In this document: positions 26,229 to 27,287 of the stretch, piece after piece | How the letters are laid out: every line of letters starts with the position of its first letter | How positions within the stretch are numbered: the stretch's first letter is position 1 | IMG/VR virus record: IMGVR_UViG_2627854101_000001 | Location: 1 to 64,000 of that record | Length of the DNA stretch: 64,000 nucleotides | DNA from: an uncultured virus (IMG/VR IMGVR_UViG_2627854101_000001) | Lineage: Duplodnaviria > Heunggongvirae > Uroviricota > Caudoviricetes | Direction: 5' to 3' (one strand) | Notes under the pieces: model-generated | The model's database searches: none | Told to the model about the DNA's origin: nothing | The model's input: only the letters and a program-made list of their open reading frames with translations | Made by a program: the position numbers and the translations under genes

Positions 26229-27287
26229 ATGGAAGCTCAAAAGAAAGCGTCAACACTAAGGGATTATTCAATATACAATAACATAAATAGGTGGTTTGAT
26301 GAATTAGATTTAAGAAACAGGGATCGAGAAACTGGAGAAATTGAAAAGTCTAATACTAGAGCCACGTATGAAAGGCATGTAAGGGAGTTTTTTAACCACT
26401 ATGCTGCCAAGGATATTGAATATTTAACTGAGAGTGACCTGGCGATCAAGAAGAGTGACCTGTATGACTATCGAACTCATTTGGCTAAAAATAAAAGTAA
26501 CTCCAATTCAACAATTAACAATAAGATTGCCGCACTGAAAAGTATGATTAAGTATCTTGAATCTGAACATGAGTGTGATTCATCTGTATTTAATTTTAGA
26601 CCTCTTCCTACAGAAAAGAACCCAGCAGGGTCTTTTGAAGGAATATCTGAAGCTTATGAATTTGCTGAGGCAGCGTATGTTACTGAGCGTCAGAACAGAT
26701 TAATGAAAAAGATGTTTATTTTGTTTAGTGCACGCACTGGAGGGCGTAAATCAGAGGTGCTTAGAGTTGGGTGGGATGATATTACTTATTCAGAAAAGCA
26801 CCAATGTTATCTCGTCAACTTTAAAAAAACTAAGCAAAAAAAGGCTAGGCCAGTTGGAATTTCCACAGCTTTTTATGAAGAGTTGTTGCTGTTAAAGAAA
26901 GAGTATGGGGAACATGAACTGTTATTTCATAAGTTAACGGTTGATTCAATACAGGATATGTGGAATCGCGTATGTAGAGTTATGGGTATTCCCAAAGAAA
27001 GAAAGATAACTCCGCATAGTTTACGCAATACTGCAACAAACTTTTCTTACAGCGTTAATGGTGATATTAAAAAAGTGGCAGCGTTCTCTGGTCACAGCAA
27101 TATCAATACTTTAAATGACCATTATTTAGTTAATGAAAGGGATTATTCTCAAGATCCAGGGGTTTTGGTTGATCAAAAAGAAGACATGTCTTTTTTAGAT
27201 GATGTTACCTTAGAGCAATATAAAGAATTCTTTTTAAAATCAGACATGTATATACAGAGTAAACTTAAAATGTTTTTGAACAAGTGA
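26229..27287 (+). CDS. yopP: Tyrosine recombinase-family protein SroD/YopP
   Basis: RTGGRKSE (R), KKTK (K), HSLR (HxxR), GHS...DHY (H, Y): full catalytic set. Confidence 0.88.
   Translation: MEAQKKASTLRDYSIYNNINRWFDELDLRNRDRETGEIEKSNTRATYERHVREFFNHYAAKDIEYLTESDLAIKKSDLYDYRTHLAKNKSNSNSTINNKIAALKSMIKYLESEHECDSSVFNFRPLPTEKNPAGSFEGISEAYEFAEAAYVTERQNRLMKKMFILFSARTGGRKSEVLRVGWDDITYSEKHQCYLVNFKKTKQKKARPVGISTAFYEELLLLKKEYGEHELLFHKLTVDSIQDMWNRVCRVMGIPKERKITPHSLRNTATNFSYSVNGDIKKVAAFSGHSNINTLNDHYLVNERDYSQDPGVLVDQKEDMSFLDDVTLEQYKEFFLKSDMYIQSKLKMFLNK

Follow-up and report, generated by a model that had tools for sequence, protein, structure and literature searches.

A conserved tyrosine-recombinase catalytic set in SroD, a neighbour of the repressor genes in SPbeta-like phages

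The sroD gene and its catalytic residues

Arbitrium signalling is studied with SPbeta-like phages as the model. The repression module of these phages has an unusual make-up, namely two recombinase-fold proteins together with a ParB/DndB-like protein. We have analysed a DNA stretch of 64,000 nucleotides (the window), which forms positions 1 to 64,000 of the IMG/VR record IMGVR_UViG_2627854101_000001, an SPbeta-like provirus record of 84,972 bp. Our subject is the gene sroD, which encodes one of the two recombinase-fold proteins. The module is headed by aimR, the gene of the arbitrium receptor, and the order of aimR, the small open reading frames (ORFs) and sroD-sroE-sroF is the one annotated in phi3T and SPBc2 (Table 1). 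Of its two recombinase-fold proteins, SroF has lost the active site, whereas SroD has retained its own through deep divergence.

The window protein shares 77% identity with phi3T_95 (97% of the length) and approximately 30% with SPbeta YopP, and therefore, judged by its sequence, it is the phi3T-type SroD, an already-known gene orthologous to phi3T_95. The DNA of this part of the window (25000-30000) is approximately 74% identical to phi3T and its relatives. SroD matches the Pfam family Phage_integrase (PF00589) over residues 154-300 with 54.4 bits (cut-off 27.1, E 1.7e-14), the N-terminal SAM-like domain Phage_int_SAM_1 (PF02899) over residues 41-113, and an integrase family of PHROG (8.7e-32). 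An AlphaFold2 model with a mean predicted local distance difference test score (pLDDT) of 90.6 has a two-domain Xer/Cre-like fold. Its top Foldseek matches are XerA (2.7e-10), XerH, the Int of Tn1549, Cre and lambda Int, several of which were solved on DNA, and the Foldseek probability is 1.00 for XerA, XerH, Cre and lambda Int (approximately 300-350 alignment columns). A single-sequence phmmer search of SroD against the PDB chains gave no match at E up to 0.01, such that a family profile was required; this profile matched the solved chains of XerA (9.8e-21) and XerD (8.2e-16) with the catalytic columns in register. The extension beyond the catalytic tyrosine keeps its C-terminal consensus in two family alignments (A1 and A2). 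The score for the arm-binding domain Int_N is 15.4 bits, under the Pfam cut-off of 27, and SroD is, according to sequence and model, a simple recombinase that has core-binding and catalytic domains but no arm-binding domain.

The first-pass annotation of this locus had quoted five motifs of a tyrosine-recombinase active site, and all of them are indeed present, i.e., RTGGRKSE (residues 169-176), KKTK (199-202), HSLR (263-266), GHS (288-290) and DHY (297-299). A profile alignment to the solved XerA, XerC-like and XerD proteins places the catalytic set at R173, E176, K202, H263, R266, H289 and Y299. The distance from the second histidine to the tyrosine is 10 in the window protein and 9 in the homolog of Geobacillus virus E3.

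Conservation among homologs had been set beforehand as a test of this active site. A HMMER search against 1.84 billion representatives matched 1,267 proteins at E<=0.001, of which 269 reached E<=1e-10. The alignment used here holds 151 sequences, namely the window protein, those of phi3T, SPbeta and E3, and 147 of 155 library proteins (eight shorter than 290 amino acids were dropped); most are 25-40% identical to the window protein, and four close relatives 76-97%. In addition, 62 viral loci were gathered with two narrower sub-alignments (A2 and A5). The catalytic residues proved not to be variable, either in the 151 sequences (Table 1) or in the viral loci, where sroD is intact in 60 cases, all of which show R-K-H-(R/K)-H-Y; two apparent isoleucines in the tyrosine column of the viral-locus alignment are due to a one-residue shift, and the tyrosine is in fact present. 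In the other two loci (L004 and L036), sroD is frameshifted, with SroE and SroF still open.

The position of the second catalytic arginine (Arg II) switches between arginine and lysine at least three times in a quick maximum-likelihood tree of 63 rows, from which the two broken genes and one partial gene (L064) were omitted. SPbeta YopP itself has a lysine at this position (HSFK) and an alanine at the glutamate position. Hence, the earlier statement that SroD/YopP keeps a complete active site is correct for the phi3T-type SroD and does not extend to SPbeta YopP. In the Cre mutagenesis described in PMC2943603, Tyr324 and Lys201 were essential and Glu176, His289 and Trp315 were tolerant to exchange. 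The R292K variant of Cre was active in vivo and in vitro, yet the covalent intermediate builds up, and the same paper mentions a few natural lysines at the Arg292 position. The pattern of tolerance in the SroD family, in which the glutamate is the position that varies (A 87, E 35 of 151), matches these requirements for catalysis.

The fate of the neighbouring SroF is different. At the catalytic positions, as mapped onto MrpR (PMC10516654 Table 3), the window SroF carries I/D, E, K, K, I/N, N and V, which bears out the earlier claim that its active site is lost: both arginines, both histidines and the tyrosine are gone, and only the glutamate and the lysine are left in the window copy. Eight SroF sequences were examined (four from viral loci and one each from the window, phi3T, SPbeta and E3), and in every one of them the greater part of the catalytic set is missing. 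SroD retains the set in seven of these eight genomes, the eighth being L004 with its frameshifted sroD. SroD had no match to the Pfam models MrpR_N_CB and MrpR_C_cat at E up to 0.1.

Table 1. Features of the window discussed in the text, in window positions; residue counts refer to the 151-sequence alignment
Feature	Position	Strand	Basis or residues found
Conserved block, between yonP and yonR in SPBc2	7715..7785	+	Anchors in SPBc2, Goe12, phi3T and 11 further provirus records
Candidate site CCCTATATAA-GATACG-TTATGTAGGG	7805..7830	+	10-bp arms, 9/10 complementary, 6-bp spacer
One of 28 junction dyads, upstream of aimR	23683..23698		Motif match
aimR, arbitrium receptor	23820..24974	+	Pfam AimR 1.5e-85
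Three small ORFs (76, 84, 54 amino acids) at the place of sroA-C	25541..26219	+	Positional match to phi3T_92-94, yopM-O
sroD (yopP homolog), simple tyrosine recombinase (predicted)	26229..27287	+	ORF, ATG start, 352 amino acids
Core-binding domain, residues ~14-121	26268..26591	+	Model helices H14-30 to H118-121
Catalytic domain, residues ~139-300	26643..27128	+	Pfam PF00589 and profile alignment to XerA, XerC-like and XerD chains
Arg I (R173) codon	26745-26747	+	R 151/151
Glu (E176) codon	26754-26756	+	A 87, E 35, S 13, others 16 of 151
Catalytic Lys (K202) codon	26832..26834	+	K 149/151; aligns with GK of the XerD beta hairpin
HxxR box	27015..27026	+	
His (H263) codon of HxxR box	27015-27017	+	H 151/151
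Arg II (R266) codon of HxxR box	27024-27026	+	R 89, K 62, no other residue, of 151
His (H289) codon	27093-27095	+	H 146, W 3, others 2 of 151
Nucleophile Tyr (Y299) codon	27123-27125	+	Y 149/151
C-terminal extension, ~52 residues past Tyr, family-specific	27129..27284	+	Helices 310-351, block pLDDT 76-92
sroE (yopQ homolog), DndB/ParB-like	27364..28713	+	Pfam DndB 6.3e-16; PHROG 5732 1.1e-145
sroF (yopR/mrpR homolog), recombinase-fold repressor without active site	28734..29717	+	MrpR_C_cat 2.6e-26, MrpR_N_CB 3e-16

Genomic setting of SroD-like genes

The neighbours within 5 kb of SroD-like genes were judged by Pfam and custom hidden Markov models. The gene lies directly upstream of SroE-SroF in 28 of the 62 viral loci, as it does in phi3T, SPbeta and E3; a further 28 loci have a gene for a YonO-like RNA polymerase and/or a RecD2-like helicase within 5 kb and no SroE-SroF, and six have neither type of neighbour. 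The group with adjacent SroE-SroF is split from the remaining loci by one branch (Shimodaira-Hasegawa-like approximate likelihood ratio test support of 85). When whole records were searched, SroF was found in 25 of 25 SroD-carrying records and SroE in 24 of them, including records in which the genes are not adjacent; in those checked, SroE-SroF then lie approximately 20-45 kb away. Thus, SroD-like, SroE and SroF are core genes of the large YonO-type phages, and their adjacency is a matter of gene order.

Of the 62 viral loci, 22 have a yonO homolog no more than 5 kb away from the SroD-like gene, in most cases divergent and just upstream, and the window has an ORF of 924 amino acids at the yonO position (2175-4949, minus strand) with a weak Pfam RdRP match (1e-09).

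The question whether SroD could integrate the prophage is answered largely by where its genes lie. SPbeta integrates by means of the serine recombinase SprA, as the first-pass annotation had put it and as stated in PMC8612738 and PMC10516654. SroD-like genes of the 62 viral loci are located mid-record in large phage records, mostly of 90-220 kb. A serine recombinase is also present in 16 of 26 records (in nine of these within 5 kb of the record end), and three further records hold a second tyrosine recombinase at the record end. The mid-record position of the SroD genes and the separate recombinases at the ends thus argue that SroD is not the prophage integrase. PF00589 finds only SroD in the 85-kb record of the window, and this record has no Resolvase or Recombinase domain and so no serine recombinase, the likely reason being its extent. 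The record starts beside yonO, runs through replication genes and ends at genes that by eye resemble those for ribonucleotide reductase and thymidylate synthase, so that the integrase arm, on which sprA lies in SPbeta, is apparently missing from it. As a separate observation, eight records (G005, G007, G010, G011, G012, G014, G015 and G018) contain a further tyrosine recombinase of 333 amino acids (PF00589 E 1e-11 to 1e-13) approximately 22-26 kb from the SroD-like gene, which is the third recombinase-family gene there.

Eight RNA-library runs from three studies have sroD on their contigs. Three of these runs, one per study, were examined at the locus, and each has one contig that extends from sroD to sroF. 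On this evidence sroD appears to be co-expressed with sroE and sroF, though weakly so, since library contigs may derive from DNA and cannot prove transcription. According to the Kohm preprint, one of three data sets has yopP among the genes that are active while the SPbeta prophage is dormant.

Several other genes of the window may be mentioned here. The place between yonO and the conserved block at the packaging start, which in phi3T is occupied by small ORFs, here has a gene for a GTPase of the tubulin/FtsZ family (6270-7382, plus strand; Pfam Tubulin 9.3e-20). Downstream of the sro module follow genes for an ATP-dependent DNA ligase (36072-36884, minus strand, 2.6e-29), a peptidase associated with the SOS response (36954-37637, minus strand, 1.3e-77) and a homolog of the Gabija anti-defence protein Gad1 (37993-38883, plus strand, 7.7e-150).

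Candidate target sites

The first-pass annotation had suggested that the retained residues point to a second job of SroD, and had named two possible targets, a dif-like site at 7804 and the gene-junction motif TAAAA-N6-TTTYA. Of this proposal, the catalytic role finds support in the conservation described above, and neither target could be tied to SroD.

The first of these sites is a palindrome (7805-7830), which has a single copy in the record and is separated by 20 bp from a conserved block on its 5′ side. It is identical in phi3T, BUCT083 and SPbetaL3. The packaging start (the opening point) has been mapped between yonP and yonR (preprint 10.1101/2021.11.22.469490). A TATAA-N6-TTATA core with an exact 6-bp spacer is found at this place in every lineage that has the packaging block, in seven sequence variants (counted in nine named phage records representing eight distinct phages, the window and 11 further provirus records), and the outer arms and spacers vary by lineage. 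Arms of the CCC...GGG type occur in all five genomes examined that carry a phi3T-type SroD, including SPbetaL5 despite its otherwise diverged flanks, and arms of the (A/G)CGTG...CACGC type in all three SPbeta-type phages examined. The phi3T type alone has a run of T after the palindrome. The one close relative with broken sroD (L036) has a left arm that matches at only 6 of 10 positions, which is a single case. The site proposed as dif-like has the plan that a Xer-type enzyme needs and a conserved position, and with regard to SroD it is a candidate. Inverted repeats with 10-bp arms number 12 across the record as compared to 2-11 in twenty block shuffles, and the site is no outlier by this measure. 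No dif/lox-type site was found around sroD in the window.

Other observations concern the surroundings of this palindrome and of the sroD gene. A sigma-70-like promoter match (7765-7793, plus strand; TTTAGA, 17 nt, TATATT) ends 12 bp before the palindrome, and a terminator at the palindrome would leave nearly no transcript from it. In phage SPbetaL6 (L072), the packaging-start block and the palindrome are tandemly duplicated (424 and 545, 121 bp apart). At nine loci from three subclades (L011, L014 with one arm mismatch, L015, L017, L018, L019, L021, L022 and L023), a palindrome CAGAGA-N7-TCTCTG lies approximately 115-140 bp upstream of the SroD-like start, between divergent YonO-like and SroD-like genes, and related loci have other short palindromes in that region.

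As to the second proposed target, the dyad TAAAA-N6-TTT(T/C)A, the motif is real and belongs to the phage group as a whole. It has 48 strand matches at 28 sites of the window, with 3.97 expected, and none of 100 shuffles reaches 48. The spacing is exact, since whole records have 2-57 copies with N6 as compared to 0-4 with N7 and 0-8 of a backward control. The dyads coincide with gene junctions, shortly before the ribosome-binding site, and differ in their spacers; the right flank is asymmetric. Their copy number depends on the lineage (2-57), although the SroD-like gene, SroF and, in all but one record, SroE are always there, and because the dyad co-occurs with all three Sro genes alike it cannot be assigned to SroD over SroE or SroF. 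Thus, the strong enrichment of the motif stands, and its role as an SroD target, with spacers that differ from site to site, is a proposal. A narrower idea, that the dyad is specific to loci in which SroD stands beside SroE-SroF, was derived from flanks of approximately 5 kb (2.0-2.3 dyads per 10 kb versus 0.2-0.4 elsewhere) and was overturned by the whole records, three of which have 55-57 dyads with non-adjacent genes, and by the presence of SroF in all 25 records and of SroE in 24 of them.

The repressor SroF is a monomer when it binds its 26-bp box (preprint 10.1101/2025.11.27.690993). Some dyads are directly followed by an AT-rich box that looks by eye like the reverse complement of the phi3T SroF box. 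Repeats of the form (A/G)(G/A)TAAAAATAAAA(T/C) are present at 8305-8320, 25475-25490 and 29752-29768 and beside the dyads at 37945, 57919 and 59546, several of them directly after a junction dyad. Since they resemble, by eye, the reverse complement of the published box, they are probably SroF operators. Just past the sroF stop, at 29714-29736, there is a hairpin TTAATCCCTG-TTA-CAGGGATTAA; its ATCCC...GGGAT stem sequence recurs after sroF at locus L005 and in phi3T and Geobacillus virus E3, and in L007 and L012 it is part of a terminator with a T tail, such that the stem sequence is conserved between very distant phages.

When the window phage was compared with contigs from four related sequencing runs, 14 of 49 similarity breakpoints lay within 10 nt of a dyad, where a uniform null gives 1.06; this is a hint at most, because the uniform null is too lax and both features favour intergenic DNA. 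One joint from 25797 to 29746 (DNA run X1) was discounted, as it has 21 letters on the short side and lands in the repeated AT-rich box.

Possible roles of SroD and comparison with known systems

Weighing the conserved catalytic set and the modelled fold, we regard it as on balance probable that SroD is still a working DNA cleavage-and-rejoining enzyme, which selection has retained as a core gene. Its most likely job would be to act on the phage genome at one site, as Cre does at loxP. SroD would bind as a dimer to inverted arms that flank a 6-bp centre, and Y299 would form a 3′-phosphotyrosine link with the DNA. In this way, injected and terminally redundant DNA could be closed into a circle, or multimers could be resolved, either of which may help to establish lysogeny. 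On sequence features, the palindrome beside the packaging start is the better candidate of the two proposed targets and would be the best site for such a reaction. A helper function in repression could likewise follow from the binding of SroD to sites of this kind. Should SroD indeed be an active enzyme, the module would have a function beyond repression, and which site is used in which reaction would become a defined question.

Several points speak against an enzymatic role, or against the site considered for it. The published genetics reportedly present SroD as an auxiliary (helper) repressor and not as a recombinase, and the first-pass annotation likewise names it an auxiliary repressor. 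In the literature searched, YopP features only as an integrase-domain protein or as a core gene, SroD is named only within 'sroDEF', and there is no report of a catalysis test. The frameshifted copies with intact SroE and SroF mean that sroD is dispensable, at least in the short term. MrpR, in which there is no catalysis, depends on its tyrosine for stability and for binding to DNA (PMC10516654), and a single conserved residue is therefore weak evidence. As to the palindrome, its arm type goes with the SroD type in the nine named phages and the window, but this agreement is confounded by the overall relatedness of the phages, and a consensus scan scored the window copy as a terminator-like hairpin. 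Binding or cleavage by the terminase at this place is at least as natural as an action of SroD, and a role in packaging or termination is as likely as one in recombination. A dif/lox-type inverted repeat shared among SroD-like genes was found neither within 700 bp upstream of 24 of them (10-bp arms, <=1 mismatch) nor, in a second pass, in 17 intergenic regions (12-bp arms, <=3 mismatches). Finally, the contigs of the four related runs contained no trustworthy rearrangement joint.

The strongest alternative, which we consider possible though clearly less probable than an active enzyme, is that SroD is only a DNA-binding helper repressor that clamps operator DNA beside SroE and SroF, with the catalytic residues persisting for backbone contact or for the stability of the fold. 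The position of the gene directly upstream of both repressor genes (28 of 62 loci, phi3T, SPbeta and E3) fits such a role, and SroF and MrpR prove that this fold can repress (PMC10516654, preprint 10.1101/2025.11.27.690993); however, another 28 of the 62 SroD-like genes adjoin YonO and/or the RecD2-like helicase instead. The exchange at Arg II (89 arginines versus 62 lysines) is what a simple requirement for charge would lead one to expect, MrpR is destabilised by Y304F and Y304A without any catalysis (PMC10516654), and the loss of sroD by frameshift in two of 62 loci likewise agrees with a helper function. Against this, SroF shows the fate of an active site under binding only, with five of seven positions gone in the window copy, and His 263 of SroD is present in 151 of 151 sequences, the Cre equivalent being only moderately conserved (approximately 87% of tyrosine recombinases, PMC2943603).

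A more far-reaching version of the enzymatic role seems to us unlikely, namely that SroD reads TA(A/T)AA-N6-TT(A/T)TA, acting in Cre-like fashion in genome closing or resolution at 7805-7830 and occasionally swapping cassettes between related phages at the junction dyads. Such swapping would explain why similarity breaks between strains fall at dyads. If it were true, the sro module would be a combined unit of repression and recombination, and the large YonO-type phages would carry an integron-like shuffling system.

We think it improbable that SroD is a nicking-closing enzyme that serves replication or transcription at many weak sites, in the manner of a type IB topoisomerase. The YonO gene and/or the RecD2-like helicase gene within 5 kb in 28 of 62 loci would suit such a function, as many SroD-like genes are flanked by both, and some have DnaD-like genes downstream. 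The chemistry of tyrosine recombinases is common to type IB topoisomerases (PMC2943603), and the lysine that favours the cleaved state at Arg II of Cre (PMC2943603) is found in 62 of the 151 family members. However, the fold matches are two-domain recombinases and not topoisomerases, the invariant His 263 has a Cre counterpart (His289) of which type IB topoisomerases have no equivalent (PMC2943603), and there is no sequence sign of an action at multiple sites.

As the integrase or excisionase of this prophage, SroD is rejected as very improbable: it is the sole recombinase-family gene found in the 85-kb record (PF00589, Resolvase, Recombinase), but this record is apparently without the sprA arm, phi3T with its 77% identical SroD has a 5-bp attP/attB site (cited in the Kohm preprint), kamA is among the loci used by phages with SprA orthologs (Kohm preprint), and SroD lies mid-genome in every related record and has no arm-binding domain at the Pfam threshold.

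The system closest to the one described here is the sro operon of phi3T and SPbeta itself, which has aimR-aimP-aimX, three small ORFs and sroD-sroE-sroF in identical order, and differs in the case of SPbeta YopP by an identity of approximately 30%, the lysine at Arg II and the alanine at the glutamate position. With SroF and MrpR, SroD has the fold class in common, and SroF is encoded two genes downstream, but SroF is without Arg I, the histidine, Arg II, the His/Trp residue and, in the window, the tyrosine, all of which SroD retains. SroD does not belong to the MrpR/SroF type, as it keeps the catalytic arginines and histidines and matches no MrpR Pfam model, nor to the lambda Int type, as Int_N stays under the cut-off and the gene is internal to the genome, both in this phage and in the 62 related loci. 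IntI4 of the integron integrases is among the profile and fold matches of SroD, and imperfect palindromes at gene junctions recall cassette arrays; however, SroD scores 27.6 bits against the integron-integrase family TIGR02249 (cut-off 265), and, as opposed to attC, the junction dyads have arms of 5 bp and are positioned just upstream of ribosome-binding sites.

The best matches in both sequence and structure are Xer proteins (XerA, XerC/XerD, XerH), which have the simple two-domain architecture and the full catalytic set in common with SroD. Their dif sites consist of inverted arms around a 6-bp centre, which is the general plan of the candidate palindrome as well. SroD differs in being phage-encoded, in its tail of approximately 52 residues past the tyrosine and in having a site that is only a candidate. 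Its scores are far under the NCBIfam equivalog cut-offs for XerA (74.8 versus 220 bits), XerC (51.2 versus 335.15) and XerD (42.8 versus 329.6), and therefore SroD, by this comparison, is not a Xer ortholog.

The Cre-loxP system differs from SroD in that the P1 lysogen is a plasmid and SPbeta-like phages integrate, and the sequence identity of SroD to Cre chains is 12-14%, with the link between SroD and a site being hypothetical. Nevertheless, Cre chains are among the structural matches of SroD, and Cre is a simple tyrosine recombinase of the headful-packaging phage P1 that is not an integrase and that uses one palindromic site in order to cyclise or resolve the phage genome.

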